A stretch of 64,000 nucleotides of DNA from Candidatus Kerfeldbacteria bacterium (GCA_047946875.1 CP181398.1:15154-79153); one strand, 5' to 3'; positions 6,461 to 56,654 are shown, numbered from the stretch's first letter. Numbers and translations are program-made. The notes: generated by a model from the sequence alone, not told the origin.

Positions 6461-6515
6461 AAAAACTTCCCATTTATAAGTGGGAAGGTTTTAAATAGTA
6501 ACTTTATTTGTTTAA

Positions 6516-40242: not shown

Positions 40243-40314
40243 AATTGTAAATAATAGTCTTTCTAGTATGACATTTACTAAATTTGTGACATGTAAAAAA
40301 TAGGCTATTTTGCC

Positions 40315-40343
40315 TTGACTTTCTCATTTAAATGTGCTAGAAT
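40315..40343 (+). promoter_or_regulatory. Sigma70-type promoter: TTGACT, 17-bp spacer, TAGAAT
   Basis: Near-consensus hexamers with optimal spacing about 120 bp upstream of the PilN-like ORF. Confidence 0.55.
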
Positions 40344-40460
40344 ATATATATAAGCTAATAAACTTGCTGATATTGGCTTTACATTTATTTAATTGATAAA
40401 AAAGCATATTTTTTAGATAAATAAAAATAAAAAAGCAAAAAACAAAAATAAAATCAGCAT

Positions 40461-42536
40461 ATGGCCATAAATCTGCTCCCATTGGAGCAAAAATCAAAAT
40501 TAAAAAAACAAAAATCAGTTTCGGAAACACGTAATATTGAAATGACGGGTCCGAAAAAGATGGAAAAATCAAAATCATCAATTCAAAGTGGTGGTGTTTT
40601 AGGTTTTTTTATACAAGCTTTTAGAGCACCTAAGGTTGTAGAAAAAGAAGTAGAGAAAAAACAAGCATCTCAAAATATTGAAGAGACAAAAATATTATTT
40701 AAAGAAAAAATACAATATAAGACTTCAAGGCCTGTACCGAAAGTTAAATATCATATTCCTACGCGTAAATCTGAATCTTTAAATAAACAATTATCTTATC
40801 AAGATGGAAATAAAATAACTAGTATTTTTGATAGACCAAAAAAAACAAATTACAATCAGTCTAAACAATCTGAAGTTGATACTTCTAACAAACCAAAAGA
40901 TCAGTTTCCTAAATATCATTCTGTTAGTACTGAGGAGCTTGTAGGAAAAAAGAAGATCAAACCAAGTAAGGTGAAAATAATAGAAGTGGTTTCTGAAAAT
41001 GGGGATAATAAAAAAAATAAGATATCAATTTGGAAAAAAATTAAAACTTGGTTTGGTAATATTTTTAGTAAAAAGGTGAAACAGGAGAAACCAGCACCTG
41101 ATCCAGAAAAGATATCAGAATTATCTGGTTTCCCAAAACCAAAAAAAGTAGAGTTGGAAGTATCATATGAAAAAGAAATTTTAAGACAGTTTAATAAAGG
41201 AAAAGAAGAAGTAAAAAATATTTATATAGAACCTCAGAAAGAAATTATCAAAAAAGTAGAACCTAAAAAAGATGATTTTGACTTAGAAATTAAAAAAGAA
41301 GAACCGATTTTAGTAGAAGAAGTTGTTGAAGAGATTTTACCGGAAACAGAAATTAAGAAAACAATTACATATGTTGATCCTCCAAAAGTTGCTCAGGCCA
41401 AACCTATAGAAAAAAAGAAAATTAAAATTGAACCAGAAATTGTACTTGATATTCCAAAAAAAGAAAAACATAAGAAAAATTATTTTAGGTGGTTTACAGA
41501 TTTTTGGAAATCATTTATTTCTATGTTTCAATCTTTAAAAAATAAAAACAAAAAAATTATTTCTGAACCAATAACTATTGTTGAAGAAAATACAAAAGTT
41601 GAATATGAAAGTAACAAACCTTCTTTTAAAGAAATAGATTTTAATAAGCCTTCTTTAGATGAACCGGAACCAAAATTAGATAATATTCCAGCACCTCCTT
41701 TACCACCGAAAGAAGAAAATATTTTCAGTCATGATGATATGTTAGATAATATAAAATCCGAAATTAATGCTGCTAAAGAAAGTAATGATTTACCAGTACC
41801 TCCGCCGCCATTGCCTTTCGATATTGATCAAGATGATGCTCAGGACAACGAAAAAGAAATTGTTGAATCTTCATTGTTAACTTCAGCTGATGCTGTTGAA
41901 GGATTATCCGGAATGGATTGGGAAGTTAATTTGATACCAGAAGAGGAACAGGAAAAAAATATCCCCGTTTCTAAAATTTTATATTTAGTTATGGTTGTAA
42001 TAGTTTCTGGTGCAATAGTCTTTGGAGGATGGTTATGGGTATATTATTATTTTAATACGATTTCGACCACAATTAGTGAGATTGATGCAGAAATATCACT
42101 TAAAGAAGCTGATATAGCCAAATACAGTCAAGTACAGCAAGATGCTCGCATAGTACAAGATAAAATAAAGAATGTTCAGGAATTGTTAGATAATCATATA
42201 TATTGGTCAGAATTTTTTAATAAATTAGAATATTATACTACCACTGAAGTTTACTATAATTCTATGAGTGTAGATGTAAATGGAACAGTTACATTAAGTG
42301 CGGTAGGCAGTAGTTATGAAAAAGCAGTTAAACAGTTAATGGTATTTGAGAGAGCAAGTGATTTTGTATCTATAGCAACAATTAGTGATATAGTATTCCA
42401 AGATGTCATTGTAGAGTTAGAAGAAGGTCAAGAAGCTGAGATCCAGTCTGTAGAGTCTGATGAGGAAAATGTGATATTCAATATCAATTTAGAGATTCAA
42501 CCCGAAATATTTTATTATTCCAAAATAAGTTTATGA
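40461..42536 (+). CDS. pilN: PilN-like T4P assembly protein with a roughly 500-aa Lys/Glu-rich, polyproline-containing N-terminal extension
   Basis: C-terminal single TM plus PilN-like coiled-coil/periplasmic region (ILYLVMVVIVSGAIVFGGWLW...). N-terminal low-complexity region with PPLPP and PVPPPPLPF motifs. Confidence 0.55.
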   Translation: MAINLLPLEQKSKLKKQKSVSETRNIEMTGPKKMEKSKSSIQSGGVLGFFIQAFRAPKVVEKEVEKKQASQNIEETKILFKEKIQYKTSRPVPKVKYHIPTRKSESLNKQLSYQDGNKITSIFDRPKKTNYNQSKQSEVDTSNKPKDQFPKYHSVSTEELVGKKKIKPSKVKIIEVVSENGDNKKNKISIWKKIKTWFGNIFSKKVKQEKPAPDPEKISELSGFPKPKKVELEVSYEKEILRQFNKGKEEVKNIYIEPQKEIIKKVEPKKDDFDLEIKKEEPILVEEVVEEILPETEIKKTITYVDPPKVAQAKPIEKKKIKIEPEIVLDIPKKEKHKKNYFRWFTDFWKSFISMFQSLKNKNKKIISEPITIVEENTKVEYESNKPSFKEIDFNKPSLDEPEPKLDNIPAPPLPPKEENIFSHDDMLDNIKSEINAAKESNDLPVPPPPLPFDIDQDDAQDNEKEIVESSLLTSADAVEGLSGMDWEVNLIPEEEQEKNIPVSKILYLVMVVIVSGAIVFGGWLWVYYYFNTISTTISEIDAEISLKEADIAKYSQVQQDARIVQDKIKNVQELLDNHIYWSEFFNKLEYYTTTEVYYNSMSVDVNGTVTLSAVGSSYEKAVKQLMVFERASDFVSIATISDIVFQDVIVELEEGQEAEIQSVESDEENVIFNINLEIQPEIFYYSKISL

Positions 42537-43123
42537 ATTGGTTATCTATAAAAAGAATTACATCAACAATCTTTGTTAAATATTTTATAATAATATTGAT
42601 AGTTTTATCTTTAATAATTTTAGGTGGAGGTTATTATTTATTTATTCAAGATAAGATGACGGAGATACAAAAAGTTGGATTAGTAGATTTGCAAAGTCGT
42701 TTAAATAAAAAAGATGCAACAGATAGAACCTTGGTTATGTTAGAGATGTTAAATGACGATTATAATAAATTAAATGAAGATCAATTACAAAAACTGGGAA
42801 GTATATTACCAAAAAAATCTGAAATTCCTTTTTTAGTGATTGAAATCCAAAATTTTATAAAAGATAATGAATTAATTTTAGGTAGTATTGATGTAGGACC
42901 TTTAAGCACTTTAGAAGAGGTCTCTACTATTAATGGATTATCTCAAAATACATTTGAAGAGTTAAACATTACCTTAAGCATTAGTGGTATTGATAGTTAT
43001 TCTAAACTAAAAGATTTTTTAGATAGTTTAAGTGAGCAATTGCCAATTATTGAGTTAACATCATTAAATTATGTTCCAGGTAATGAAACTTACTCTTTAA
43101 ATTTAACTACTTATTATCAATAA
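42533..43123 (+). CDS. pilO: PilO-like T4P assembly protein
   Basis: N-terminal TM, coiled coil and a PilO-like C-terminal domain. Start overlaps the pilN stop by 4 nt. Confidence 0.55.
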   Translation: MNWLSIKRITSTIFVKYFIIILIVLSLIILGGGYYLFIQDKMTEIQKVGLVDLQSRLNKKDATDRTLVMLEMLNDDYNKLNEDQLQKLGSILPKKSEIPFLVIEIQNFIKDNELILGSIDVGPLSTLEEVSTINGLSQNTFEELNITLSISGIDSYSKLKDFLDSLSEQLPIIELTSLNYVPGNETYSLNLTTYYQ

Positions 43124-43134
43124 TTAATACAAGA

Positions 43135-44088
43135 ATGTTGGTACAAAAAACCAGTTTAAATAAAAGAACAAAAGGATTACTGATGATTTTGGTAGGTATT
43201 ATTATTATTGGAGGAGGGTATTTTGGATTTATGGCAATATCAGATAAAACATCTCAACCAGAAAATAATTTAATTACTAATAATGGTACTATTAATTTAT
43301 CGAATGTGCAATCAGGAGTGGATGGTGAGATATTTGATGATCCTCAATTTTTAAGCTTAAGTAAAAATAAGTTTGATGGTTTTACGGACCAATATTCTGG
43401 TATTACATTGAGTGATTCTAAACCAATCGAAATAACTTCATCACAAGTAAACAATCCAAAAACAGGAAATAGATTAATAATTTCTTGGCAGTTACCCGAA
43501 TACGTAAATTTTGATACAGTTTCGATTTATAGATCTTTAAGTCCAGGGTTTGTTGGTGAGCAAATATATTCAGCCACAATCGAATCAATAAAATCAAATA
43601 AAATAACAAGTTACCAAGATAGGGATGTAGAGAATACTCATAAGTATTATTATATTGTACAGTCAGAAATTTATGACGGATCTACTCTAAGTGCAAGTAA
43701 TAGCGGATCCCAATTTAATGGAATGCCTACGGATGAAATCCCTCCAGCATCACCTGAATTTGTGCAAGTACAAGGATTATCTGATGGAGATATTGAAATA
43801 TCATGGTTTAATCCCGAGGATAGCGACTTGGACATGATTAAAGTCTATCGTTCAACGGAAAAAGGTAATTTAGGGATAAATATATACGGTAAAGAGAGTG
43901 GTAATATTGGGCTTGAAAAGGTAGGAGGTTTAATGAATTATATTCTTGATACTTCAGCAGAAAATAATATCGTTTATTATTATATCGTCACTAGTGTAGA
44001 TATAAGTGGGAATGAATCATCAACAGACATTGTTTCGTCTTCATATAAATCATACTTTTACAATCCTTTTGACCCAATTGATTTTTAA
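43135..44088 (+). CDS. Membrane-anchored protein with two fibronectin-III-like domains, inside the pil operon
   Basis: N-terminal TM. Two modules each ending in YYYIV (ISWQLP...YYYIVQS and ISWFNP...YYYIVTSVDISGNES). Confidence 0.5.
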   Translation: MLVQKTSLNKRTKGLLMILVGIIIIGGGYFGFMAISDKTSQPENNLITNNGTINLSNVQSGVDGEIFDDPQFLSLSKNKFDGFTDQYSGITLSDSKPIEITSSQVNNPKTGNRLIISWQLPEYVNFDTVSIYRSLSPGFVGEQIYSATIESIKSNKITSYQDRDVENTHKYYYIVQSEIYDGSTLSASNSGSQFNGMPTDEIPPASPEFVQVQGLSDGDIEISWFNPEDSDLDMIKVYRSTEKGNLGINIYGKESGNIGLEKVGGLMNYILDTSAENNIVYYYIVTSVDISGNESSTDIVSSSYKSYFYNPFDPIDF

Positions 44089-44100
44089 ATATTTAAATAT

Positions 44101-45873
44101 ATGTCAGAACAATTAACACAAAATACAAGTAAAATCCTAGATTCTTTGATATCAGATGGGTTGATTGATGCTGGAAAAATTACTGAACTTAGGGTAAAAG
44201 AAAAAGATGAAAAGAAATTGTTAGAATTTTTAGTCAGTAATGGTAATATTTCGGAAGAAGATTTGGTAAAAGCAAAAGGAAAGGTTTTAAATGTAAATTA
44301 TGTTGAATTATTTGGTAAGACAATATCTCCATCCATTTTAAATTTAATACCTAGAGAATTGGCCGATAACTATCATGTTGTAGCTTTCCAAAAAAATATA
44401 AATGAAAATGCAAAAGAAGCAGAATTATATGTTGCTATGGTTAATCCTGGTGATTTTAAAGCTTCCGAAGCTATTGAATTTATTGCTAGAGAAAATAATT
44501 TAAAGTTAAAGTATTTTATTATTTCTCCTAGTGGTTTTCGATATGCTGTTAAGCAGTACTCTTCTTTAGATTCAGAGGTTGAGGAAGCATTGGCAAATAA
44601 AGTTGGAGAAGATAAAGAACAAGGAATTGATGATTTAATGAACAATGAAAAGGGGATGGATAAGGTTGTGAAAAGTGCTCCGGTTGCTAAAATGGTTAAT
44701 GTTATATTAAAACATGCCGTAGAAGGAGGCGCTTCTGATATACATATAGAGCCGGTTGAGAATGAAACAAGAGTGCGTTATCGTGTTGATGGTGTCTTAC
44801 ATACTTCTCTTGTGTTGCCTCGTTATGTTCATTCTGCAATTATCGCTAGGATTAAAGTACTAGCTAATTTGAAGTTGGATGAAACAAGAGTCCCACAAGA
44901 TGGTCGTTTTCGAACAGAGTGGGATGGTAGAATAATTGATTATCGTGTTTCAACCTTGCCATTGTTTAGCAACGAAAAAGTAGTAATGCGTATTTTGGAT
45001 AGAGCTTCTGTTGTATTGGATGTAGAAAAATTAGGTTTTGAAGGAAAAAGTTTAGAAATAATGAAAGAAGCTGTGAAAAAAACAGTAGGTATGATTCTGT
45101 TAACTGGTCCTACTGGTTCTGGTAAATCAACAACTTTATCAGCTTTGATGTCTATCATTAATAATGAAAATATTAATATTGTTACTTTAGAAGATCCTGT
45201 TGAGTATTATATTGACGGAATTAATCAATCACAAATTAATGCTGATGTTGGATTAACTTTTGCAGCTGGTTTAAGATCAGTTTTACGACAAGATCCTGAT
45301 GTTATTATGGTTGGTGAGATTCGTGACAATGAGACTGCTGAGTTAGCTGTACACGCTGCTTTAACTGGTCATTTGGTGTTATCTACTTTACATACCAATG
45401 ATGCGTTTGGAGCAGTGCCACGTTTTATTGATATGGGGATTGAACCATTCTTGATTACGTCATCTCTAAATACTGTCGTGGCTCAGCGTTTAGTTAGACG
45501 TTTATGTTCACATTGTATATATGAGGTAACTCTTCCAGAAACTTTGCAAGCTGAAGTAGATAAGCATTTATTACAGATACCGGATGAAAATATAATATTA
45601 CGATTAGGAAAAAAACCAGATAAATTTCAATTTTTTGAAGCAAAGGGATGCACACGTTGTGAAAATTCTGGGTATAAAGGTAGAATCTTGATAAATGAAA
45701 TTTTAGAAATTGACGACGAATTAAAAAAAGTTATTGTTAGTAATCCAACTGTTGATGCTTTAAAAGAAACCGCGCAACGTCAGAATATGATTTCTGTAAT
45801 TCAGGATGGTATTTTGAAAGCACTTGAGAAAAAAACATCAATATCTGAAATTATACGTGTTACTAAAGAATAA
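44101..45873 (+). CDS. pilB: Type IV pilus assembly ATPase PilB (GspE family)
   Basis: Walker A LLTGPTGSGKSTTL, Asp box, His box, and tetracysteine motif CSHC...CTRC; 590 aa. Confidence 0.9.
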   Translation: MSEQLTQNTSKILDSLISDGLIDAGKITELRVKEKDEKKLLEFLVSNGNISEEDLVKAKGKVLNVNYVELFGKTISPSILNLIPRELADNYHVVAFQKNINENAKEAELYVAMVNPGDFKASEAIEFIARENNLKLKYFIISPSGFRYAVKQYSSLDSEVEEALANKVGEDKEQGIDDLMNNEKGMDKVVKSAPVAKMVNVILKHAVEGGASDIHIEPVENETRVRYRVDGVLHTSLVLPRYVHSAIIARIKVLANLKLDETRVPQDGRFRTEWDGRIIDYRVSTLPLFSNEKVVMRILDRASVVLDVEKLGFEGKSLEIMKEAVKKTVGMILLTGPTGSGKSTTLSALMSIINNENINIVTLEDPVEYYIDGINQSQINADVGLTFAAGLRSVLRQDPDVIMVGEIRDNETAELAVHAALTGHLVLSTLHTNDAFGAVPRFIDMGIEPFLITSSLNTVVAQRLVRRLCSHCIYEVTLPETLQAEVDKHLLQIPDENIILRLGKKPDKFQFFEAKGCTRCENSGYKGRILINEILEIDDELKKVIVSNPTVDALKETAQRQNMISVIQDGILKALEKKTSISEIIRVTKE

Positions 45874-45896
45874 TTATTAAATAATTATATAAATAT

Positions 45897-46286
45897 ATGG
45901 AAAGTCAGAATAATAAGAAAATTAAAATCGTATTAATTGAAGATGATACTTTCTTGGGAGGTATGTATGTTGCAAAACTTAATTTAGAAGGCTTTGATGT
46001 AAAATTAGCAGATGATGGTGAAAAAGGGCTAAAGTTAGTTAAATCTGAACAACCAGATCTAGTATTGCTTGATATTATTTTACCAAAAATGAGTGGATTC
46101 GATGTTTTGAAAGATATAAAAGCAAATAAAGATACCAAAGATTTGCCTGTAATTTTACTTACAAACTTAGGTCAGCGTGAAGATGTTCAAAAAGGTATAA
46201 AATTAGGGGCGAAAGATTATTTAATAAAAGCTCATTTTATGCCATCTGAAGTAGTTACAAAAATTAAAGCATTACTACAAAAATAA
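45897..46286 (+). CDS. Single-domain CheY-like response regulator (PilH/PilG-like), between pilB and pilC
   Basis: Receiver motifs: acidic IEDD pocket, phospho-acceptor D in LLDIILP, T in LLTNL, K in LIKA. Confidence 0.8.
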   Translation: MESQNNKKIKIVLIEDDTFLGGMYVAKLNLEGFDVKLADDGEKGLKLVKSEQPDLVLLDIILPKMSGFDVLKDIKANKDTKDLPVILLTNLGQREDVQKGIKLGAKDYLIKAHFMPSEVVTKIKALLQK

Positions 46287-46301
46287 TAATAATTATTAAC
46301 T

Positions 46302-47504
46302 ATGGCTAATTTTGCTTACAAAGCTAGGAATAAAGAGGGTGAAATACTGAACGGTGTTGTTATTGCTCCAAATGAAAATATCGCTTATGGGACATTAAGA
46401 GATAAGAATTTGACGATCGTAACTTTGCGAGAACAAAAGAAATTTAAAATGGGGAGTATTAGTATAGGCTCTGTGGTTAAAGCAAAAGATTTAGTAATTT
46501 TTGCCAGGCAATTATCTGTCATGATCTCATCAAGTGTACCGATCGTAAGAGCTTTACGAGTATTGATTAAACAAACTGAAAACGTACAATTCAAAACAAT
46601 AATATCTGATATTGCAGATGAGGTTGATGGTGGTGCTAAACTATCTCAGTCAATGGCAAAATATCCAAAAGTGTTTGGAAACTTTTTTGTGCAAATGATT
46701 CGTTCAGCTGAAACAACAGGTAGGCTGGATGAAATTCTTGAGTACCTTGCCGATCAAACAGAAAAAGATTTTGATATTATGGCAAAGGCAAAGGGAGCAA
46801 TGATTTACCCGGCATTTATTATGGGAACGTTTTTATTAGTTGGTGTTGGGATGATGATGTTTGTTTTACCACAGATCACAAGTATTTTTGCTGAATCTGA
46901 GGCTGAGCTTCCATTACCTACGGTACTGTTTATGGGTCTAAGTGATTTTTTATTAGCATATTGGTGGTTAATATTAGCATTTATAGTAATACTTGCAGTA
47001 GCTTTTAAATTTGCAATAAGCACAAAGGTAGGGCGTGAAAAATTTGATATTTTTAAAATTAGGATGCCGATTTTCGGATCAATTTTTAATAATTTATATA
47101 TAACTAGGTTTTCAAGATCGTTATCTACCCTGATAGCCTCTGGTGTTCCTTTAACTACCTCACTAGATATTGTAGCTGACTTGGTTAGTAATACTTTGTA
47201 TAGGGATTTAACAAAAAAAACTATAAAGAAGGTTGAGGCCGGCGCTTCTATAACAAGTGTTTTTATTGCTAGTAAAGATGTTCCATTAATGTTGTCTCAG
47301 ATGATGAGTGTCGGAGAGCAGTCTGGTCAGCTGGATAAAATTTTACTAAAAGTAGCAGAATTTTATACAAGAGAGTTAGAAAATTCACTGAATAATTTAA
47401 CTGCATTAATAGAGCCTATTATTATGGTGGTTTTGGGTGTTGGGGTTGGTTTGTTAGTATCTGCAATTATCCTTCCTATGTATAATTTATCTGATGCAAT
47501 TTAA
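46302..47504 (+). CDS. pilC: Type IV pilus inner-membrane platform protein PilC (GspF family)
   Basis: Two T2SS-F repeats; 400 aa with 3-4 TM segments. Confidence 0.85.
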   Translation: MANFAYKARNKEGEILNGVVIAPNENIAYGTLRDKNLTIVTLREQKKFKMGSISIGSVVKAKDLVIFARQLSVMISSSVPIVRALRVLIKQTENVQFKTIISDIADEVDGGAKLSQSMAKYPKVFGNFFVQMIRSAETTGRLDEILEYLADQTEKDFDIMAKAKGAMIYPAFIMGTFLLVGVGMMMFVLPQITSIFAESEAELPLPTVLFMGLSDFLLAYWWLILAFIVILAVAFKFAISTKVGREKFDIFKIRMPIFGSIFNNLYITRFSRSLSTLIASGVPLTTSLDIVADLVSNTLYRDLTKKTIKKVEAGASITSVFIASKDVPLMLSQMMSVGEQSGQLDKILLKVAEFYTRELENSLNNLTALIEPIIMVVLGVGVGLLVSAIILPMYNLSDAI

Positions 47505-47523
47505 TTAATTGATGGATTGTGTT

Positions 47524-47552
47524 TTGACTTTTGTTGAAAAATGTGATATACT
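47524..47552 (+). promoter_or_regulatory. Strong sigma70-type promoter with an extended -10 (TTGACT, 17-bp spacer with TGn, TATACT) for the major pilin. It gives a leader of about 200 nt
   Basis: Read directly from the sequence. The leader contains a 7-bp inverted repeat acggatc...gatccgt at 47652-47690. Confidence 0.5.
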
Positions 47553-47762
47553 ATATTTAACATATTATAAAATATTTGTTCTTTACGTTTATTTAACTAT
47601 CATTAAGAAAGGTTAAATAAGTAATAATCTAATAAGTAATAATTGAGTACGTTACGGATCATTTCGAACTAAAAATCGGATCCGTGATCTGTGAATATTG
47701 AATTGTTGCAGATTATGATTGTTTATTTCTTTCTTATAAAAATGAAAGGGGGTGTAATAGTA

Positions 47763-48230
47763 ATGAAAAGAAAAGGTTTTACATTAATTGAGTTATTGGT
47801 CGTTATTGCCATTATTGGTATTTTGGCCACAATTGGTTTAGTAGCTTTGAACGGTGCTCGTGAAAAAGCCCGTGATGCTACTAGAAAATCTGATTTATCA
47901 CAGTTAAAGACTGCTTTGGTACTATATGCTGATGATTATGGTAGTATTTATCCAGCTGGACCTAATGATTCATTAACAGCTGATGGTATTTTTCACGGCA
48001 CCGAAGGTAGTAATCCAGTATTTAACGAATATATTAGTAAAGCAATATCAGACGTTACTAATGCTGGTACATTAATATATGTTTATGGAACATGTGCTGA
48101 TTCAAATGGTACTGCTAATGCAGGTTTCTTGCTTTATGCAGGTCTAGAAGCACCAGAAAGTACATTTTTTTGGATTGCCGGTGATGGTACTTCAGGAGAT
48201 GGTGATGCAGCTCCAGGTACTTGTGGTTAA
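47763..48230 (+). CDS. pilA: Major type IV pilin (class III signal peptide)
   Basis: MKRKG/FTLIELLVVIAIIGILA prepilin motif with E+5. RBS aaaggggg upstream. Strong terminator downstream. The ORF track start at 47691 is probably upstream of the true start. Confidence 0.8.
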   Translation: MKRKGFTLIELLVVIAIIGILATIGLVALNGAREKARDATRKSDLSQLKTALVLYADDYGSIYPAGPNDSLTADGIFHGTEGSNPVFNEYISKAISDVTNAGTLIYVYGTCADSNGTANAGFLLYAGLEAPESTFFWIAGDGTSGDGDAAPGTCG

Positions 48231-48263
48231 TTTTTAACCAATGTAATTACAGATTTTAATAAC

Positions 48264-48296
48264 AAAAAGCGTTCAATTTATTGAGCGCTTTTTGTA
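48264..48296 (+). terminator. Rho-independent terminator after the major pilin gene
   Basis: Stem gcgttcaa/ttgagcgc, loop ttta, followed by tttttgtattgtttg. Confidence 0.65.
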
Positions 48297-48346
48297 TTGT
48301 TTGATTTTTGGTATAATTGACTTAATAAGTAATTAAAATTATTTCA

Positions 48347-49339
48347 ATGTCACGTATCGACACTTCAATTGTAATAGTTAACTGGAATGGGTTGAAACAT
48401 CTACAAGTTTGTTTTGAATCATTACTAAAGCAAAGTTACACAAATTTTAATATTATTTTTGTAGATAATGGTTCAGTTGATGACTCTGTGGGTTTTATTA
48501 AAGATAATTTTCCTCAAGTAACAATAATTCAACTAAAAAAGAATTTTGGTTTTGCCGAAGGGAATAATATGGGCATTAGGGAAGCACTAAAGAATAATCA
48601 AATTCAATATATAGTAGCATTGAATAATGATACGGAAGTTAAGAGTGATTGGTTGGAAAATTTAATAACAGTTGTTAAGCATGATAAGATGGTAGGTGTG
48701 GTAGCAAGTAAAACATTGTTTTTTGATCAGCGAGATAAGATTGATTCAGCTGGTGACTTTTTTTTGGCTGGGACTATGAAAGTGGTTACTCGTGGTTATC
48801 AGGAAATTGATAAGGGTCAATATAATAATATTCAGGAGTGCTTTAGTGCTAGAGCTGCAGCAGTTCTATATAAGACAGAGATGTTAAAGAGTGTTGAGTT
48901 ACATGGAGATTACTTTGATAGTAATTTTTTTGCATATATTGAGGATACTGATTTATCTATTCGAGCAAGATTAATGGGATGGAAAATATTATACAGTCCT
49001 AAAGCTATTGTCTATCACAAAGTAGCAGCTACTTCTAGCAATATTTCACATGCGTTTCGTAAATATTATTCTGGTAGAAATAGACTATTTACAATGATAA
49101 AAAATTATCCAGTTAAATTGTGGCCGAAAGTTATGAATGGTAGTGAGTCTGTCGATAGAAATTATTCATTATCGTTCATAAAATCACTGTATGTATATAT
49201 AAAAATAATATTATTAGTATTATTTTCTTTCCCAAGTTTATTGGTTAAACGAAAAATTATTCAGAATAAAAAGAAGATTAACACTCAACAGATATATGAT
49301 TGGGTTGATAAATTTTCTTTAAATAACCAAAATGATTAA
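48347..49339 (+). CDS. Family 2 glycosyltransferase
   Basis: GT2 N-terminal motifs VIVNWNG and FVDNGSVDDS, plus a DTD (DxD) motif. Confidence 0.8.
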   Translation: MSRIDTSIVIVNWNGLKHLQVCFESLLKQSYTNFNIIFVDNGSVDDSVGFIKDNFPQVTIIQLKKNFGFAEGNNMGIREALKNNQIQYIVALNNDTEVKSDWLENLITVVKHDKMVGVVASKTLFFDQRDKIDSAGDFFLAGTMKVVTRGYQEIDKGQYNNIQECFSARAAAVLYKTEMLKSVELHGDYFDSNFFAYIEDTDLSIRARLMGWKILYSPKAIVYHKVAATSSNISHAFRKYYSGRNRLFTMIKNYPVKLWPKVMNGSESVDRNYSLSFIKSLYVYIKIILLVLFSFPSLLVKRKIIQNKKKINTQQIYDWVDKFSLNNQND

Positions 49340-51287
49340 TAAAATTCTAGACAACATGGAGGTGATTCGTAATAATATTGTTTTGGTTATTTTTTCATTA
49401 TTAATCTTCGTACCAACTTTTTTTACAGGGGAGTGGAATAAGTGGATACAGTCATTTATATTGGTCTTAGTTTTTTTATTAATATACTATGCAGTAAAAT
49501 TATTTGGAGATCAGAGATATAAATTTAAAAATTTTAAAGAAAAATATTTATTAAATCCTAATACTTATTTAATAATTTTTTTCATTGTAATAATTGTTAC
49601 ATCTTTTTTTTCTACAAATAAATATAAAAGTTTTAGTTTGTTGTTTTTGATGTTTGGATTTATATCAATATATTTCGTGGCTTATTTATTTTTTAATAAC
49701 TGGGAAAGATTTTTAAAAATTACAAAGATTATTTTTTTTACTGGTGTTGTGGTATCCCTGATATCATTGATAATGTATTTCTTTCAATCTTCATCTAGAG
49801 CTAGTGGTTTTCTATATAACGCTAATGCATTGGGTAGTTATATGATATTTAGTATATTATTAGGTTTGCCATTTATATTAGTTGAGAGTAAAAGGAGGTA
49901 TCTATATTTTGTTGGGTGGATTAGTATTACATTGTCATTATTTTTAAGTTTTTCATATACCGCTTGGGTTGGTTTAATTCTTCCAATTATTTTTTTTATT
50001 ATTTATTTTCGAAAAAAGATATTTATAAAAAGATATTTAATATTATTATTATTGTTTGTCGTTATTTTTTTAATTGTTATCGTTGGTATAAGATACCAAC
50101 AAACTAATGATTTATCTGAGTCAATAAAAGTATATAAAGTAATAACATTAGAACATATTATTTTTAGTTTTAATCAAAGATTTGATTTTAATTTAGCAGC
50201 ATTTGATATAGCAAAAGACAATATCATAACTGGCAGTGGTTATAATACATTTCAATCAACTTATGGTAGGTATTGGTATTCAATTTTTGAACAACCTAGG
50301 TATGCCCATAATTATTTTATACAAACATTATCAGATATTGGTGTAGTAGGATTTTTATCATTTATTATGTTTATAATATTATTGTTAAAGAATTTTTATT
50401 ACCTAGTAAAAAATCAGGTTAATGAGCACAAAAAAATAATAATTCTTGTTTCATTTTTGGCAATTCTTGGTTCAATAATTCATTCACTATTTGATTTTGG
50501 TTGGCAATTTCCTTCAGTTTACATTTTATTTTGGATCTTAGCAGGAAGTTTAATGGCTTTATCAAAAGAAGAGTATATAATTGAAGATAGTATAAATGAT
50601 AATAAACAGAATAAAAATAAAATTATTAAAGTTGGAGTTATGATACTTGCATTAATAATTTTAGGAAGAGGAATTACTTTGCTTGGAGCAAATTATCATT
50701 TTCAACAAGCTGAAATATCAAAAATTAATAAAGAATATGCATTAGAGTCAGAATATTTGTTGAAGGGTTATAATTTAGATCCCAAACCAACAAAGTTGGT
50801 AGATTATGTCCAGGCAAAAATTCAATTATCTGCAACATTAACAAAGGATGATTATATCGAATTGGAGGATTATATGTTGAGGTTAATAAATATAAATAAT
50901 GAGGAATATTTTGCTCATTGGATGCTTGGAAAAGTGTATTTTTTACAAAAAAAATATGATCAAGCGATTATTCAATATAAAACTGCTATAGAATTTAATC
51001 CAGTTTTTAGACCTGATTTTCATTATGATTTAGCTCTGGTTTATTATGAACAAGGAGATCTAATAGTTGCTAAACAAACAATTTTTAAAATTTTAGATAT
51101 ATATCCAGAGGGGATACATACAAGTAATCCTAACCTTCCACAGCAATTAGCTTTTTTAAATTTATTATTGGGTAGAATTTATGAAGATCAAGATGACATT
51201 GTAAAGGCAAGGCAATATTATACAATATCTTTGGAGTTGAAACCAGATTTTTCTCTTGCAGAAGGTCAGTTGAAAAAATTATATTAA
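49332..51287 (+). CDS. Wzy_C / O-antigen-ligase-like polytopic membrane protein with C-terminal TPR repeats. Candidate PglL/PilO-type O-oligosaccharyltransferase
   Basis: About 12 TM helices. Wzy_C-like periplasmic loop GSGYNTFQSTYGRYWYSIFEQPRYAHNYFIQTLSDIGVVG. TPR-like C-terminus. Confidence 0.6.
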   Translation: MINKILDNMEVIRNNIVLVIFSLLIFVPTFFTGEWNKWIQSFILVLVFLLIYYAVKLFGDQRYKFKNFKEKYLLNPNTYLIIFFIVIIVTSFFSTNKYKSFSLLFLMFGFISIYFVAYLFFNNWERFLKITKIIFFTGVVVSLISLIMYFFQSSSRASGFLYNANALGSYMIFSILLGLPFILVESKRRYLYFVGWISITLSLFLSFSYTAWVGLILPIIFFIIYFRKKIFIKRYLILLLLFVVIFLIVIVGIRYQQTNDLSESIKVYKVITLEHIIFSFNQRFDFNLAAFDIAKDNIITGSGYNTFQSTYGRYWYSIFEQPRYAHNYFIQTLSDIGVVGFLSFIMFIILLLKNFYYLVKNQVNEHKKIIILVSFLAILGSIIHSLFDFGWQFPSVYILFWILAGSLMALSKEEYIIEDSINDNKQNKNKIIKVGVMILALIILGRGITLLGANYHFQQAEISKINKEYALESEYLLKGYNLDPKPTKLVDYVQAKIQLSATLTKDDYIELEDYMLRLININNEEYFAHWMLGKVYFLQKKYDQAIIQYKTAIEFNPVFRPDFHYDLALVYYEQGDLIVAKQTIFKILDIYPEGIHTSNPNLPQQLAFLNLLLGRIYEDQDDIVKARQYYTISLELKPDFSLAEGQLKKLY

Positions 51288-51326
51288 TTTAGTATAATAA
51301 ATTTATTAGAATCCTATAATAAGGTT

Positions 51327-51830
51327 ATGAAATTTAATAATAAGGGGTTTACATTAATTGAATTATTGGTAGTAATTGCCATAATTGGAATTTTAGCAGC
51401 TTTTGGTTTATTAGCTTTAAACGATGCAAAAGAATCAGCACGTGATTCTGTTCGAGTTTCTGATTTATCTCAATATAGATTGGCAATGCAGTTGTATTAT
51501 GACAGTTATGGGCATTACCCAATTCCAGTGACAGCAAGCCTAATCCCAAGTAAGACTGGTCCAGATACAAGCTATGAGGTTGTGTTAAATTCAGTTGATG
51601 GCTCTATATTTTCAGTAACCAATAATCCTATAGTACCCGAGTATATTAGCGGAGTATTAGTTGATCCTTTTAATACATTAGATTATCATTATTTCTATGA
51701 TACTGATGATGGTAATCATCAAGAATATGTTTTATGTTTTTATAAAGAGAGTGTTAATTTTACTTCAAGGTATTTTCATTCATCAGGTTCATTTGCGGAA
51801 GGCCCTGATTGTGTAGGTTTAACTTTGTAA
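51327..51830 (+). CDS. Type IV pilin or minor pilin
   Basis: MKFNNKG/FTLIELLVVIAIIGILA prepilin motif. Confidence 0.75.
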   Translation: MKFNNKGFTLIELLVVIAIIGILAAFGLLALNDAKESARDSVRVSDLSQYRLAMQLYYDSYGHYPIPVTASLIPSKTGPDTSYEVVLNSVDGSIFSVTNNPIVPEYISGVLVDPFNTLDYHYFYDTDDGNHQEYVLCFYKESVNFTSRYFHSSGSFAEGPDCVGLTL

Positions 51831-51832
51831 TT

Positions 51833-52252
51833 ATGAATAATAATCAAAAAGGCGTAAATTTAGTCTCAGTAATAATCTCAATAATAGTGATTGGTGTCAT
51901 TATTGGTGGTGGATTTTTGTTACTTAATAATGAGCGATCGAAAACTAGAGATGCAAAAAGACTTTCTGATATAACTAGAATACAGGCGGCTTTTGAATTT
52001 TTATATAATGATACGGCGAGTTATGAATTAGCAGCTATTACTGGTTGTGATGTAGTTGGTAGTACAGTAGATACGTGCAATCTAAAACAATACATGCCAT
52101 CTATTGTGAATATGAAAGATCCAGGTAAATTTAGTTATGTTGTAAATGTGGTGCCTGATGAAGAAACTTATACTATAGTATTCCGACTTGAGAATAGTTA
52201 TAATAATTATGCTTCAGGTGCACATACTTTGACCCCAGTCGGGATTAGGTAA
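51833..52252 (+). CDS. Pseudopilin-like protein (atypical: no E+5)
   Basis: MNNNQKG/VNLVSVIISIIVIGVIIGG hydrophobic N-terminus. Start inferred at the internal Met of the ORF 51809-52252. Confidence 0.5.
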   Translation: MNNNQKGVNLVSVIISIIVIGVIIGGGFLLLNNERSKTRDAKRLSDITRIQAAFEFLYNDTASYELAAITGCDVVGSTVDTCNLKQYMPSIVNMKDPGKFSYVVNVVPDEETYTIVFRLENSYNNYASGAHTLTPVGIR

Positions 52253-52332
52253 TTTTTTATGTATAATATACGCTTTATTAGGTGTTTTTTTGTTTCTCAT
52301 TTTTACTATTTTTTGGTATAATAAACAGTATT

Positions 52333-53085
52333 ATGAATATAATATTAGTCACAATTTTAGGTTTGGTGGTTGGAAGTTTTCTGAACGCTGTCATTTATCG
52401 TCTTCATGTAAAAGTAAGTTTTATGCGAGGTCGTTCGTATTGTCCAAGTTGTAAACATGATTTAAGTGCAAAAGATTTAGTGCCATTATTTAGCTTTTTA
52501 TTCTTAAGAGGTAAGTGTAGATATTGTAGCAAAAAAATATCTTGGCAATATCCATTGGTAGAATTTTTTATTATGGTTTCTTTTTTAATATTATATTGGC
52601 AATTTGGTTTGAGTTTAGATTTTTTCGTTTATTTAATATACACAGGTTTTTTAGCCGTTATTTTTGTATATGACTTAAAATATTATTTGATATTGGACAA
52701 GGTAAGTATCCCAGCCATAGTTGTTGCTTTTTTATTATCATTTTTTGTGTTAGAAATTGGAATAGTTAGTTTACTAATAAGTGTATTAATTGGTGGTGGA
52801 TTTTTTCTGTTACAGTTCGTAATTTCAAAAGGAAAATGGATAGGTGGTGGGGATATACGGCTAGGAGTTCTTATGGGGTTAATGCTTGGCTACCCAGTTA
52901 TCTTGGTGGCTTTATTTATAGCTTATATTTTAGGATCCGTAATTGGAGTAGTGCTGATAGCTGGTAAAAAAAAGAAATGGAAGAGCCAGGTTCCATTTGG
53001 TACTTTTTTATCTATAGCAACTTATATAGCTTTTATATTTGGTGAGTATATCGTAAATTATTATCAAGATTTATTTTTATTATGA
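52333..53085 (+). CDS. pilD: Prepilin peptidase PilD (A24 family)
   Basis: CPSC...CRYC zinc motif and the catalytic GGGD region (IGGGDIRLGVLMG). The ORF track starts at 52282; a Met at 52333 fits better. Confidence 0.8.
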   Translation: MNIILVTILGLVVGSFLNAVIYRLHVKVSFMRGRSYCPSCKHDLSAKDLVPLFSFLFLRGKCRYCSKKISWQYPLVEFFIMVSFLILYWQFGLSLDFFVYLIYTGFLAVIFVYDLKYYLILDKVSIPAIVVAFLLSFFVLEIGIVSLLISVLIGGGFFLLQFVISKGKWIGGGDIRLGVLMGLMLGYPVILVALFIAYILGSVIGVVLIAGKKKKWKSQVPFGTFLSIATYIAFIFGEYIVNYYQDLFLL

Positions 53086-53786
53086 CAAAAGATTCACAAA
53101 AAGGATTCACATTAGTTGAACTTTTAATTGTTATTTTCATAATTGGAGTTTTATTAATAGTAGTAGCAGTAAATTTTGATAGAGGTAAACGTTCGAATGA
53201 CTTGAAAGCTGCGGGTTTAGATATTGAAAGAAATTTTCGTCAAGCACAGAATTATAGTATTAGTGGTAATACATATAAATACTGTTCCGAAATAAGCACA
53301 AATTCATTTTATAGGTGCAGCATTGATACTGACTGTCCACCAAATGTAGAACCACCATCACTTGGTACTTGTATTACATCGGTTCCGCCAGGAGGGTATG
53401 GGATTCAGATTTCTTCAACTGAAAATTATATATTGTTTGGGAATACTACTGCTGATAATACCTTTCTTGATAATATTGAAGATTATGAAATTATTTATAA
53501 TAATTTGACATTGAATGGTATGCATATCAGTCAAATTAAATTCGGTGATCAACCATCATTTACAGCAGCTTCAGTCGCTAATAAAGTAGATGTGATTTTT
53601 TCCGTACCAACAGGACAAATTAGTTTTTATCTTGATGATGTAGAAGTTCTTGATGAAAATGATCAACCTATTGTGACATTAGAAATATTAGTTAGTAGTG
53701 ATTATGTATCAACTAGTTGTAGAAAAATTACTATTAATAGAATAACGGGATTAATAAATGAAATTCAAAGTGATTGTAGTATTTAG
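53082..53786 (+). CDS. Minor pilin / pseudopilin (FimT/GspH-like)
   Basis: KG/FTLVELLIVIFIIGVLL prepilin motif. Confidence 0.7.
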   Translation: MTKDSQKGFTLVELLIVIFIIGVLLIVVAVNFDRGKRSNDLKAAGLDIERNFRQAQNYSISGNTYKYCSEISTNSFYRCSIDTDCPPNVEPPSLGTCITSVPPGGYGIQISSTENYILFGNTTADNTFLDNIEDYEIIYNNLTLNGMHISQIKFGDQPSFTAASVANKVDVIFSVPTGQISFYLDDVEVLDENDQPIVTLEILVSSDYVSTSCRKITINRITGLINEIQSDCSI

Positions 53787-53795
53787 AAAATTATT

Positions 53796-54404
53796 ATGTT
53801 GAAAAAAATAATAAAAAATGAATCAGGTCAAAGTTTAATGGAAATGTTAATAGCTATTTTCATTTTAATTTTAGCTTTGACAGCTACTATAGTTTTGATA
53901 GTTACTAGCATTAATGCTGCTAGAGATAGTATGAATAAATTAGTTGCTACAAATTTATCAAGAGAGGGGATTGAAATAGTTAGAAATATTAGAGATAGTA
54001 ATTGGATTCATCCTGACGGAGAAGATTGGGATAAAGATTTGGATACAGACAATACAGCCATCCCAGAGATTGATGGAACCAGTAATATAAGTTTGGATTT
54101 TACTCCGGCTGATTTTTCTAATCCTTTATTGGTAGGTATAAAATTATCCGGCAATGATTATGTCCAAGGGGCATCGGCGACTGGTAATAATACTTTGTTT
54201 ACAAGATTGATATACTTAAATCCTATTTGCCATGATTATTCTAACCCACCTGCAGTTGATGAAACAATAATTGATACAGGCACATGTGCTGGAAACTATG
54301 AAAAAGTGGGTGTAAGAGTAATATCAGAAGTTAGGTGGCATGCGACTAATTCAAATAGGAAAGTTATATTAGAAGATCGTTTGTATAACTGGCAAAATTT
54401 ATAA
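53796..54404 (+). CDS. Minor pilin (PilV-like)
   Basis: G/QSLMEMLIAIFILILAL prepilin motif. Confidence 0.6.
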   Translation: MLKKIIKNESGQSLMEMLIAIFILILALTATIVLIVTSINAARDSMNKLVATNLSREGIEIVRNIRDSNWIHPDGEDWDKDLDTDNTAIPEIDGTSNISLDFTPADFSNPLLVGIKLSGNDYVQGASATGNNTLFTRLIYLNPICHDYSNPPAVDETIIDTGTCAGNYEKVGVRVISEVRWHATNSNRKVILEDRLYNWQNL

Positions 54405-54412
54405 ATAATAAG

Positions 54413-55162
54413 ATGTCTAAACAACAAAAATTAAATAATTCAGGCTTTACTTTGATAGAAATGCTAATTGCTATTTCAATTTTTTCACTTGTATTGATAG
54501 TGGCAACAAACATCTACATAACTATTAATAATAGTCAGCGCAAAGTTGTAACTCAGCAAAAAATTCAGGATGATATTAGATTTTTATTTGAGGCGATAGC
54601 TCAAGAAATTAGATTGGGGAGTATAAATTATGATTTTTATGAGAATAATAATATAAATTTACATACTGGTTTAGGAGGTTCAGATAATAGTATTTTAGCA
54701 ATCAATAGTCAGTCAGGAGATGAAATATTTTTCAGACGTAGTAGTGATCCATTTAATACTAATAATGGACAAGGAAATAAAGTTGAATATTGTACAGTAA
54801 ATGATTTTAATGATTGTGCTTTGGATGATGATACATTATGGCAAAGCGTTACACCGGCGGGTGTTGAAACTTTAGATCTCCGTTTTGCAATTACCCCGTC
54901 CGCCAATCCATTTGTAGAAACATCCACAGTTAGTTGTACGAGTAATGCTGAATGTGATTTGGGGTATGTTTGTGATACTATTGATGACTATATATGTGAG
55001 TATGATAGTGATGGTCAAAATTTTCAACCAAAAGTAAGATTTGTTTTAAATTCGCGGGGTATAGGTAGAAATAAGGGGGAAGAATCGGAAATTTTAATGC
55101 AAACAATAATTTCTACAAGAATATTTACTGGTGCAGTTCAAAATCTAAATTATGAATTATAA
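54413..55162 (+). CDS. Minor pilin (PilW-like)
   Basis: SG/FTLIEMLIAISIFSLVL prepilin motif. Confidence 0.6.
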   Translation: MSKQQKLNNSGFTLIEMLIAISIFSLVLIVATNIYITINNSQRKVVTQQKIQDDIRFLFEAIAQEIRLGSINYDFYENNNINLHTGLGGSDNSILAINSQSGDEIFFRRSSDPFNTNNGQGNKVEYCTVNDFNDCALDDDTLWQSVTPAGVETLDLRFAITPSANPFVETSTVSCTSNAECDLGYVCDTIDDYICEYDSDGQNFQPKVRFVLNSRGIGRNKGEESEILMQTIISTRIFTGAVQNLNYEL

Positions 55163-56654
55163 ACTTTTAAAAAATCAGCAAGGTTCAATTCTGTTATATT
55201 CTTTAATTGTAATTTCTATAATTTCAGCGATATCTATAATCGTATCTATTATTGTGGTTAATCAGATTAAGCTAACAAGTGGAGCTGCTAATGGTACACA
55301 GGCATACTATGCTGCCGAAGCTGGTATTGAGAAAGGTTTGTTTGCAGTTCGTTCGATGAGAGATGACCCTGATTTTTATTTAGAAGAACCATTAGAATTA
55401 AATTATTCGGCTATTAATATTATAAAAGGTTACTCTGACAGTAGCTTTGTAAATAAAGCTTCGTTTGATATATCACAGGCCGCAGCGGTTACTCCAAAGA
55501 TTGAAAATCAAGAAATCAAAGAAAATGAATCTGTGCAAATTGATTATTATGATGTAGACGATCCATTACGAGTAGATCCATTAACTCCAGAAGTTGTAAG
55601 TTTGACTATTCAGAACTCAGGAGATAATCCGGCGTCATGGGCCGAAGTATCTTGGACGGCTTGGGATAATCAAGGAGAATTGTTGACTTCAACTTCAGCA
55701 AGAAGAGTTATTGGTCCATCTGATTTGTCTAGAGTGAATGGCTGGCCAATAAATGATTTAGATGTATTTGAGGATGATGCAGTAGGATACAGAGTAAGAA
55801 TCAAAGCGTTAAAAGCGATACCTACAGATACAGAGCCTGGCGATTTGTCGAGTGTTACGGTTACTCCATATGACGGAGATGGAGATGAAATTTTTGATTT
55901 ACCATCACAAGTGGTTATTAAATCCATTGGAGAAAGGGGAGGTTTTAAGCAATCTCTTGTAGCTTCAGTTCCATGGAAATTGCCATTGTTCGGATTGTAT
56001 GATTATGTATTGTTTAGTGAAAGTGATATTTACAAGGATATTATTCTTAATGCTCCAACCTATAGTTCTGGGGTTATTCAGGTGGAAGCGGATATCCAGG
56101 GACTTTTTGGAACCTGCGAGAGTTGTAGTGCCTGCGAGAGTTTTGGCTGGAACGGATTAGATTGTCCTCTTCAACCACTTGGCGCGGATATACGTTGCGC
56201 AGACCAATCATCTTTTGGTGCGATTTGTAAATTAGCTGCTGATAATAGTGATAATGCTTTGGGATTCATTTTACCAGTTCCTGATAATGTACCGGAGGGA
56301 GATGAGTATTATGTATCAATAAAAGCAACTTACTTTGGATGTGATGAAGTTCCTGCCATCGATTGTGGTAGAGATATTGCTGTAGAAATAAATGGACAGT
56401 CAGTAGTTGTTAGCGATCAGGTACCATCTGGAGATCAGACAGATCATATCTGTACAATTCCTATTAGTTTCTCATTGGGTGATCCGACACTACCGGAGGA
56501 TGACAGCAGCCGAACGATTAAATTTACTGTTCATCCATATGGGTCAGCTACTGGTACCTCGGGAGTTGATCCAGGCGAATGGCATGATAGTGAATATGTT
56601 TTAGCTGATTGGTATCAGCTCAGTACTTATAAAATGTTTGATGATTGTTATTAA
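55152..56654 (+). CDS. PilX-like pilus tip or assembly protein
   Basis: Hydrophobic N-terminus followed by the PilX_N-like motif AYYAAEAGIEKG; 500 aa. Confidence 0.55.
   Translation: MNYKLLKNQQGSILLYSLIVISIISAISIIVSIIVVNQIKLTSGAANGTQAYYAAEAGIEKGLFAVRSMRDDPDFYLEEPLELNYSAINIIKGYSDSSFVNKASFDISQAAAVTPKIENQEIKENESVQIDYYDVDDPLRVDPLTPEVVSLTIQNSGDNPASWAEVSWTAWDNQGELLTSTSARRVIGPSDLSRVNGWPINDLDVFEDDAVGYRVRIKALKAIPTDTEPGDLSSVTVTPYDGDGDEIFDLPSQVVIKSIGERGGFKQSLVASVPWKLPLFGLYDYVLFSESDIYKDIILNAPTYSSGVIQVEADIQGLFGTCESCSACESFGWNGLDCPLQPLGADIRCADQSSFGAICKLAADNSDNALGFILPVPDNVPEGDEYYVSIKATYFGCDEVPAIDCGRDIAVEINGQSVVVSDQVPSGDQTDHICTIPISFSLGDPTLPEDDSSRTIKFTVHPYGSATGTSGVDPGEWHDSEYVLADWYQLSTYKMFDDCY

Follow-up and report, generated by a model that had tools for sequence, protein, structure and literature searches.

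The described enzymes that come closest to the protein considered here are the pilin-linked O-oligosaccharyltransferases (O-OTases) TfpO, TfpM and PglS, the general O-OTase PglL, the S-layer O-OTase WsfB and the ligase WaaL, all of the Wzy_C type, together with the pilin arabinosyltransferase TfpW, which is of the GT-C type. In WaaL the residues R288 and H338 are essential, and their equivalents in PglL are R298 and H349 (PMC3643930); the equivalent His is required in TfpM (H286) (PMC9829042), and an active site composed of R159, R271/R278, H324 and E379 was proposed for PglS (PMC12800693). The residue roles discussed below were taken from these three studies. PglL is separated from WaaL by the PglL_A motif (Schulz 2013), PglL was reported to have a tetratricopeptide repeat (TPR) motif, and WsaB, an S-layer O-OTase of Geobacillus, has a separate TPR partner, WsaA (PMC2943079 for both). 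In an experimental study of Saccharibacteria pili (PMC11623550) O-glycosylation was only predicted computationally and no enzyme was named. In this article we have analysed a 64 kb stretch of genome DNA of Candidatus Kerfeldbacteria (Patescibacteria, candidate phyla radiation, CPR), referred to below as the window, which contains a type IV pilus (pil) locus; inside this locus, behind the genes of the major pilin and of a family 2 glycosyltransferase (GT2), there is a gene for a 651-aa protein with an N-terminal Wzy_C domain and a C-terminal TPR domain. We favour, with moderate confidence, the view that this protein is an O-OTase dedicated to the type IV pilus. In our literature searches we met no account of this enzyme from pil operons of the CPR.

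Results

Conserved position of the enzyme gene in pil operons

The pil locus occupies ~39.1-56.7 kb of the window with all genes on the + strand; its core is formed, in this order, by the major pilin, the GT2, the 651-aa protein, a second pilin, a pilin-like protein, PilD and the minor pilins, and the last pil gene, which encodes a 500-aa protein, is followed by ligA (Table 1). An initial annotation of this DNA had proposed a candidate pilin O-glycosylation module made up of the first three of these genes, ahead of further pilins, in a CPR-like organism. All three genes are present on the + strand; the CPR nature of the host proved right and so did the positions proposed for the GT2 and the 651-aa genes, whereas the pilin start given there, the GTG at 47691, is the mechanical start of the open reading frame (ORF) 47691-48230. 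The true start is almost certainly the ATG at 47763 (MKRKG/FTLIELL), because a AAAGGGGG ribosome-binding site precedes it and the N-termini of the orthologs match.

The gene context was studied in a sample obtained by ortholog look-ups, by a scan of one genome per GTDB species and by three PilC-guided look-ups (L029-L031). For orthologs with 49, 41, 35 and 29% identity the look-ups all led to this operon, where the first pilin is directly followed by the enzyme, and in 14 of the 15 loci returned by the GTDB species scan, all of them of Patescibacteria type and with identities down to 28%, the pil order is kept according to the synteny script. The shared order is PilB, response regulator, PilC, pilin, (GT2), enzyme, pilins, PilD, minor pilins and LigA. 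The enzyme also stands after a pilin in the loci L029 and L030, which were reached through PilC homologs with 65% and 58% identity. Altogether, in ~20 distinct loci, every ortholog that was checked, at 28% identity or above, follows a pilin in the same pil operon; the two genes adjoin directly in L001, L005, L018, L021-L023 and L030, and only one or more glycosyltransferase genes lie between them in the window and in nine other loci. It should be emphasized that this gene arrangement is not a chance juxtaposition, because it recurs in ~20 independent Patescibacteria loci, and that the conserved gene order is the main evidence on which the link between the enzyme and the pilus is based.

According to the initial annotation, orthologs in envelope-polysaccharide loci outside pil loci would have spoken against its proposal. 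All orthologs checked down to 28% identity are in pil operons, and only distant homologs (26% identity or less, ~160 bits or less) were found outside them: one distant Patescibacteria homolog adjoins a Wzx-like flippase and a GT1, the others stand in unrelated contexts, and the small proteins encoded beside distant homologs in L006, L026 and L027 are not pilins.

Two further observations concern the sampled loci. In the secretin-bearing (diderm) locus L026 (5480-13154), pilMNOPQ precedes a gene for a small membrane protein of TPR-like type, a tandem pair of Wzy_C-TPR genes, a GT4, a DegT aminotransferase and a GT2; Wzy_C-TPR genes have thus become associated with a pilus operon independently here. 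Additionally, L010, L013, L018 and L020 carry a typical Patescibacteria pil operon, yet their records are entitled 'uncultured Gammaproteobacteria bacterium', and these labels are probably wrong.

Family, fold and topology of the 651-aa protein

The 651-aa protein is 100% identical to a public protein from a metagenome-assembled genome that is named "O-antigen ligase family protein". The Wzy_C profile (PF04932) matches its residues 199-345 with 64 bits against a cut-off of 31.7, and was found in all five orthologs tested (best 8.3e-21); at the C-terminus TPR_2 matches at about residues 490-650 (5.4e-15), and TPR_1, TPR_8 and TPR_11 match as well. The initial annotation had suggested a hidden Markov model (HMM) comparison with Wzy_C and PglL profiles, and the former matched but the PglL-specific PglL_A did not. 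The fusion of Wzy_C to TPR, which it had regarded as unusual, is indeed present, but it is less exceptional than it was claimed to be: WsfB, reportedly PglL, and the GT-C enzyme TfpW have TPR. By an exhaustive HMM search 182 clusters (50% identity) were collected at E ≤1e-30, mostly of 580-660 aa, within a superfamily of ~64,000 members.

When the full-length protein was compared with the PDB sequences only TPR proteins were matched. A profile of the N-terminal 450 residues, built from five orthologs, gave a single match, the WaaL of Cupriavidus (7TPG, E=3.4e-4), in an alignment that pairs ...EQPRYAHNYY... with ...LEHAHNDIVE... and H326 with H313 of the solved protein. The AlphaFold2 (AF2) model, computed from an alignment of 17 orthologs, reached a pLDDT of 82.3 and a pTM of 0.82, and in the Foldseek comparison with the PDB 7tpg_B was the only membrane protein among the 50 matches listed, with a TM-score of 0.63 over 446 columns; all other matches listed were TPR proteins, among which the TPR domains of O-GlcNAc transferase (OGT) and SPINDLY (SPY) stood out. 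The best PDB matches of the TPR domain were consensus TPRs and the OGT/SPY TPR domains, and it weakly resembles PilF and PilW. Hydropathy and the AF2 model concur in 13 transmembrane (TM) helices, an N-terminus inside the cell, and a catalytic loop and a TPR domain outside. Judged from sequence and model, the 651-aa protein looks like an active enzyme of the WaaL/O-oligosaccharyltransferase type, and we propose that its TPR domain is a docking site for the acceptor protein.

Active site and distribution of conserved residues

In an alignment of 17 orthologs, which share 27-50% identity with the window protein, sixty positions are invariant. They include R156, N163, N165, S208, T210, W212, Q282, R283, G301, G303, H384 and D388, and the motif E320-Q-P-R323-Y-x-H326-N-Y, in which the window sequence has A at x. 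The invariant Q282-R283, G301xG303 and E320...H326-N-Y motif are all held by the extracytoplasmic catalytic loop. In a profile-profile alignment with WaaL of E. coli K-12 (E=0.011) R283 falls on R288 and H326 on H338, so that the conserved Arg and His of the outer loop, to which the initial annotation had drawn attention, were located and are invariant. By numbering alone, R156, R283, R323, H326 and D388 also resemble R159, R271/R278, H324 and E379 of PglS.

The outside loops have a mean pairwise identity of 62% with 27% of positions invariant, the cytoplasmic loops 25% with 1%, and the TPR domain 38% with 7% (14 positions). This constraint on the outer face is the pattern expected of an outer-leaflet enzyme and not of a passive anchor. 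We consider the enzyme family, the fold, the topology, the conserved catalytic residues, the outer-face constraint and the placement beside a pilin gene as established. One could suppose that the protein is a structural factor of pilus biogenesis, a TPR scaffold like PilF or PilW in which the Wzy_C part would be a non-catalytic membrane anchor; the gene is a constant member of the operon core even where the GT2 is missing, and the weak similarity of the TPR domain to PilF and PilW would suit this idea too. However, the catalytic-site residues and the outer loops are the most conserved parts, the R...H-N constellation of the active site would not have stayed invariant through 28-49% identity if the domain were only an anchor, and PilF-type pilotins serve secretins, whereas Pfam scans of the proteins of the pil locus detected no secretin. 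We regard such a role as very improbable.

The active site bears on another alternative as well, according to which the enzyme would be a ligase or polymerase of a lipid-linked glycan, with an acceptor other than a protein (for example a glycolipid or a wall polymer); the product would be needed locally for the crossing or anchoring of the pilus in the envelope. Some polymerases belong to the Wzy_C superfamily along with the WaaL ligases, and the one relative with a solved structure is a ligase; furthermore distant Patescibacteria homologs adjoin the Wzx-like flippase and GT1 in a context of polysaccharide type, and in the diderm locus L026 the two Wzy_C-TPR genes after pilMNOPQ are followed by sugar-biosynthesis genes. 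Against this, neither Wzx nor a chain-length regulator nor an initiating transferase is encoded at the locus, and the His-Asn motif of the WaaL/O-OTase type is invariant, on which, to our knowledge, Wzy polymerases do not depend. No LPS (lipopolysaccharide) genes were found in the 64-kb window; as far as we know Patescibacteria have neither LPS nor lipid A, therefore the classical acceptor of WaaL is absent, and the attachment of wall polymers in monoderms is normally the task of LCP enzymes. The place of the gene between two pilin genes in ~20 loci would also be left unexplained by a non-protein acceptor, which appears improbable to us.

The pilins as putative acceptors

The pilins that adjoin the enzyme have a common N-terminal helix and a C-terminal disulfide loop. 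Orthologs of the major pilin share 52-71% identity, and in the window its C-terminal disulfide-loop region reads ...FFWIAGDGTSGDGDAAPGTCG. Among the pilins of the closer clade this loop has the sequence [FY][FYW]W[IVL]xx-D-G-[T/x]-S-x-[DE] a short distance ahead of the last Cys, and most of the enzyme-adjoining pilins keep a DG[T/x]S motif ahead of that Cys. A conserved C-terminal Ser/Thr was not found: the window pilin ends in ...GTCG, and the last residue of its orthologs may be G, C, D, T, F, A, P, H or S. Since the last residue is not a conserved Ser/Thr, the rule of C-terminal residue modification by TfpO and TfpM is not applicable; by analogy with PglS and PglL an internal Ser/Thr is more likely to be the acceptor site, and the C-terminal disulfide loop with its conserved DG-T-S motif is its likely location.

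The second pilin, which is found directly 3' of the enzyme in most of the orthologous loci, might be an additional acceptor. The pilin-like protein after it gave no Pfam hit, and its orthologs have 137-147 aa in all loci; the gene was listed as 51809-52252 from a TTG that overlaps the previous gene, and according to the ortholog lengths it probably starts at the ATG 51833 instead. In L031, a locus of a more distant Kerfeldbacteria member (PilC 53% identical), there is no Wzy_C gene, and the pilins are without the DGTS...Cys motif at the C-terminus.

GT2 and the variable glycosyltransferase slot

The stop of the GT2 gene and the start of the 651-aa gene overlap by 8 nt. The best NCBIfam and PDB relatives of the GT2 are chain-extending glycosyltransferases: the rhamnosyltransferase TIGR01556, EpsD, chondroitin synthase and GalT1. 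Ten distinct loci have it (the window, L002, L004, L010, L011, L013, L014, L015, L020 and L029) and at least seven do not (L001, which is among the closest orthologs, L005, L018, L021-L023 and L030), thus its membership in the module, as proposed in the initial annotation, holds for the window and nine other loci but not for these. The GT2 is an optional accessory of glycan building. L029 has, in addition, a PMT_2 (GT-C) gene, located behind the pilin and ahead of the GT2. Because only glycosyltransferases occupy the interval between pilin and enzyme (none, GT2, or PMT_2 with GT2), this slot looks like a small cassette of glycan diversification placed before a constant transferase.

The PMT_2 neighbour in L029 suggested the idea that the GT2 could be a polyprenyl-phosphate sugar synthase of the GtrB/DPMS type; this is unlikely, its best relatives being chain-extending GT-A enzymes and no GtrB/DPMS structure having been matched. 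In L014 an inserted 194-aa ORF (6222-6806) separates the GT2 from the Wzy_C-TPR gene, and by eye its HYHLL motif makes it look like a Y1/REP-associated transposase.

Organization of the pil locus and its neighbourhood

The features of the locus are collected in Table 1. The PilB and PilC ORFs are strongly similar to genes with T2SSE and T2SSF hits in other loci, and the 500-aa protein at the end of the operon has an ortholog with a weak PilX_N hit in L005. The promoter-like site 5' of the major pilin is weak evidence, the count of such sites in this AT-rich region being not above the shuffled expectation. The hairpin is the sole terminator-like site within 47400-52400. It probably attenuates transcription, so that the pilin would be made in excess over the products of the downstream genes; a hairpin after the pilin gene is usual where far more of the pilin is made than of the downstream products.

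Table 1. Coordinates of features of the Kerfeldbacteria pil locus, counted from the first letter of the window
Feature	Position	Strand	Evidence
PilM, 691-aa protein, PilO-like, fn3-like 317-aa protein, PilB ATPase, single-domain response regulator, PilC	39103..47504	+	Pfam hits
Promoter-like site, TTGACT-17-TATACT with TG extension, 5' of major pilin	47524..47552	+	consensus scan, 10/12 matches
Major prepilin, 155 aa, leader MKRKG, mature N-terminus FTLIELLVVIAIIG	47763..48230	+	N_methyl PF07963, 2.4e-9
Terminator-like hairpin and T-run just 3' of major pilin	48262..48295	+	15-pair stem, 5 GC pairs
GT2 (GT-A fold) glycosyltransferase, 330 aa, C-terminal hydrophobic anchor	48347..49339	+	PF00535 1.6e-23, PF13641 1.5e-13
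651-aa Wzy_C and TPR protein, whole gene	49332..51287	+	
Membrane domain, aa 1-452, WaaL/O-OTase-type Wzy_C, 13 TM helices, N-terminus inside	49332..50687	+	HMM, model, topology
Large extracytoplasmic catalytic loop, aa 254-332 (79 residues)	50091..50327	+	invariant columns, alignments
C-terminal TPR domain, aa 453-651 (199 residues), outside the cell via TM13	50688..51287	+	TPR hits, topology
Second pilin, 167 aa, possible second acceptor	51327..51830	+	N_methyl 5.4e-10; synteny
Pilin-like protein, ~139 aa	51833..52252	+	degenerate prepilin motif KG/VNLVSV, no Glu5
PilD prepilin peptidase	52282..53085	+	A24_N_bact 1.7e-32, Peptidase_A24 2.4e-10
Three minor pilins and 500-aa protein, end of operon before ligA	53082..56654	+	N_methyl hits, synteny

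The response regulator between PilB and PilC (45897-46286, +, 129 aa) keeps its position wherever the flank covers it. A PilT-like second ATPase stands between the regulator and PilC in the distant loci L021-L023, L030 and L031, and the locus of the window is without it. The GC content is slightly lower, 0.27-0.28, over 48-52 kb; horizontal acquisition was considered for this reason and rejected, as the composition of membrane proteins and the deep conserved synteny explain it better.

In the gap between a 4400-aa ORF and pilM, a gene of a 23S rRNA-intervening-sequence protein (38690-39064, +; PF05635, 1.4e-27) stands alone, away from rRNA genes. At ~12.5 kb the gene orientation flips: up to this point every ORF of at least 110 aa lies on the - strand, and beyond it nearly every one on the + strand. 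The GC skew changes there from ~-0.05 to ~+0.26. A replication origin would suit these changes, and so would a simple divergent boundary of strand bias; no dnaA was seen in the window. The gene at 3556-4311 (-) encodes 251 aa that include a Cthe_2314-like HEPN domain (PF18730, 1.2e-11), and it may form a toxin or defence pair with the uncharacterised 171-aa ORF beside it.

Discussion

The analysis supports the pilin O-glycosylation reading of the initial annotation as a candidate, with the acceptor inferred from gene order only. According to the mechanism that we propose for an O-OTase dedicated to the pilus, a glycan would be built on undecaprenyl pyrophosphate at the cytoplasmic face by an initiating enzyme encoded elsewhere, as would be the flippase, and the membrane-anchored GT2, where it is present, would add a sugar. 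The lipid-linked glycan would then be flipped to the outer face and bound by the outward-facing active site, where Arg156, Arg283 and Arg323 could hold the pyrophosphate and His326 could serve as the base. Transfer would occur en bloc to a Ser/Thr of the membrane-embedded pilin, before its polymerisation by PilB and PilC, and the TPR domain, placed outside via TM13, would dock the pilin head; the C-terminal disulfide loop with the DG-T-S motif is the likely site. What we infer in this scheme is the nature of the donor and of the acceptor, the acceptor site and the part played by the TPR domain.

Several points weigh against this scheme. Chemical evidence of glycosylation is lacking for any CPR pilin, and neither an initiating phosphoglycosyltransferase nor sugar-nucleotide genes nor a flippase was found in the 64-kb window. 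PglL_A (PF15864) gave no match with the window protein or with four orthologs at E up to 10, and in an HMM scan of the 651-aa protein Wzy_C_2 (PF11846) gave none either, its C-terminal domain being TPR. The alignment with E. coli WaaL is statistically weak (E=0.011), the major pilin is without the C-terminal Ser/Thr of the TfpO and TfpM substrates, and the correlation between enzyme and pilin type rests on a single enzyme-less locus, L031. Furthermore conserved gene order, on which, and not on chemistry, the case for the pilin as acceptor is built, cannot separate the pilin from other surface acceptors.

Such other acceptors might be encoded close by. Four very large ORFs (1012, 2159, 780 and 4400 aa; 12628-38663, +) are found directly 5' of pilM, with only sparse domain hits (BNR/sortilin-like, DUF5122 propeller, Laminin_G_3, DUF2341 and fn3), and an IS200-like Y1 transposase (PF01797, 2.1e-9) is located between them at 24664-25191 (+). 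A giant ORF (1425-3934 aa) also ends just 5' of pilM in L029 (1-2106), L030 (1-1499), L031 (1-2181) and the diderm L026 (1-734). The giant ORFs may encode pilus-associated adhesins or surface proteins and be alternative targets of glycosylation. The enzyme might be a general protein O-OTase, like PglL or WsfB, that acts on many surface proteins, among them an S-layer or the giant upstream proteins, with the pilin as one substrate or none and the placement in the pil operon reflecting co-expression. The giant putative surface proteins at pilM, in the window and singly in L029-L031, would suit this explanation, as would the layout of 13 TM helices and a large C-terminal domain on the outside, which is nearer to PglL and PglS, whose action is general or directed at an internal sequon, than to the short TfpO and TfpM, and the example of WsfB, a Wzy_C and TPR enzyme that acts on an S-layer protein in a monoderm (PMC2943079). 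Nevertheless, the enzyme always stands immediately after a pilin gene and not beside the giant ORFs, PglL_A did not match, and general O-OTases such as Neisseria PglL are typically unlinked to pilin genes. We therefore consider a general O-OTase unlikely and keep to the enzyme dedicated to the pilus.

A wider proposal, that TPR-guided Wzy_C glycosylation of pilins is an obligatory step of pilus biogenesis in the whole Patescibacteria clade of Kerfeldbacteria and relatives, is put forward tentatively, as something possible that we would not yet call probable. As organelles of host contact in CPR/Patescibacteria, type IV pili have the best support, and the locus offers a concrete and testable pair of enzyme and substrate (Table 1). 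The idea of a pilin-linked Wzy_C O-OTase would not surprise glycobiologists. If the wider proposal is true, this would be the first protein-glycosylation system defined in CPR and pilus glycans would be a conserved feature of ultrasmall episymbionts; the swappable glycosyltransferase slot would diversify a pilus glycan that mediates host recognition or phage evasion and would give a handle on host and phage specificity. It would also add to the glycoengineering toolbox, which now holds PglL, PglS and TfpM, a compact monoderm O-OTase with a modular TPR domain for acceptor binding.

How does this enzyme compare with the known systems? PglL and PglS were tested through the Pfam HMMs PglL_A and Wzy_C_2, and TfpO and WsfB were compared by description. 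WaaL (C. metallidurans 7TPG, E. coli) has in common with it the fold (TM-score 0.63), the equivalents of R288 and H338 and the outward-facing active site; unlike it, WaaL has 12 TM helices, no TPR, a lipid A-core acceptor and a place in LPS core loci, compared with 13 TM helices, TPR and a pil operon here. That the host is a monoderm is supported by the secretin-less locus and by general knowledge of Patescibacteria.

TfpO (PilO; P. aeruginosa 1244, Acinetobacter) and TfpM (Moraxellaceae) are encoded, as here, directly 3' of their pilin substrate in the same orientation, and they have the conserved catalytic His and a presumed undecaprenyl pyrophosphate-glycan donor. However, they have 420-470 aa without a C-terminal outside domain and modify a C-terminal Ser/Thr of the pilin (PMC9829042), whereas our protein has 651 aa with a 199-aa outside TPR domain and the pilin ends in Gly, with a variable last residue among the orthologs; the enzyme here is moreover a constant operon component across a deep clade with a monoderm CPR host. 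PglS (Acinetobacter baylyi, ComP-specific) shows the same layout of 13 TM helices and a C-terminal extracytoplasmic domain (PMC12800693) and adjoins its pilin-like substrate, and PglL of Neisseria likewise has a sizeable C-terminal extracytoplasmic domain, but here that domain is a canonical TPR array. The glycosylation of internal sites by PglS and PglL is likely the mode here too.

The closest architectural precedents are WsfB and TfpW. WsfB of Paenibacillus alvei joins Wzy_C to a C-terminal TPR motif and serves a protein acceptor in a monoderm (PMC2943079), as would be the case here, yet it sits in an S-layer glycosylation (slg) cluster with the full set of glycan-biosynthesis genes, whereas in the pil operon one or two glycosyltransferases at most are nearby. 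TfpW, the pilin arabinosyltransferase of P. aeruginosa Pa5196/PA7, is a 646-aa polytopic protein encoded directly 3' of pilA, thus in a similar position, and its large periplasmic C-terminal TPR domain has, as here, its best structural match in the TPR domain of OGT; but it is an ArnT/Emb-like GT-C enzyme with a DDX motif and a polyprenyl-P-arabinofuranose donor, while ours is a WaaL-like Wzy_C protein with no ArnT/PMT match by HMM or among the Foldseek matches listed. The enzyme works most like the pilin-linked Wzy_C O-OTases TfpO, TfpM and PglS, yet fits none of PglL, PglS and TfpO/TfpM. The class that suits it best is a fifth type of pilin-associated Wzy_C transferase, which bears a TPR domain, has a fixed place in the pil operon throughout a Patescibacteria clade and is preceded by a variable glycosyltransferase slot, and if its function is as we suggest it would form a fifth class of pilin O-OTase beside TfpO, TfpM, PglS and PglL.

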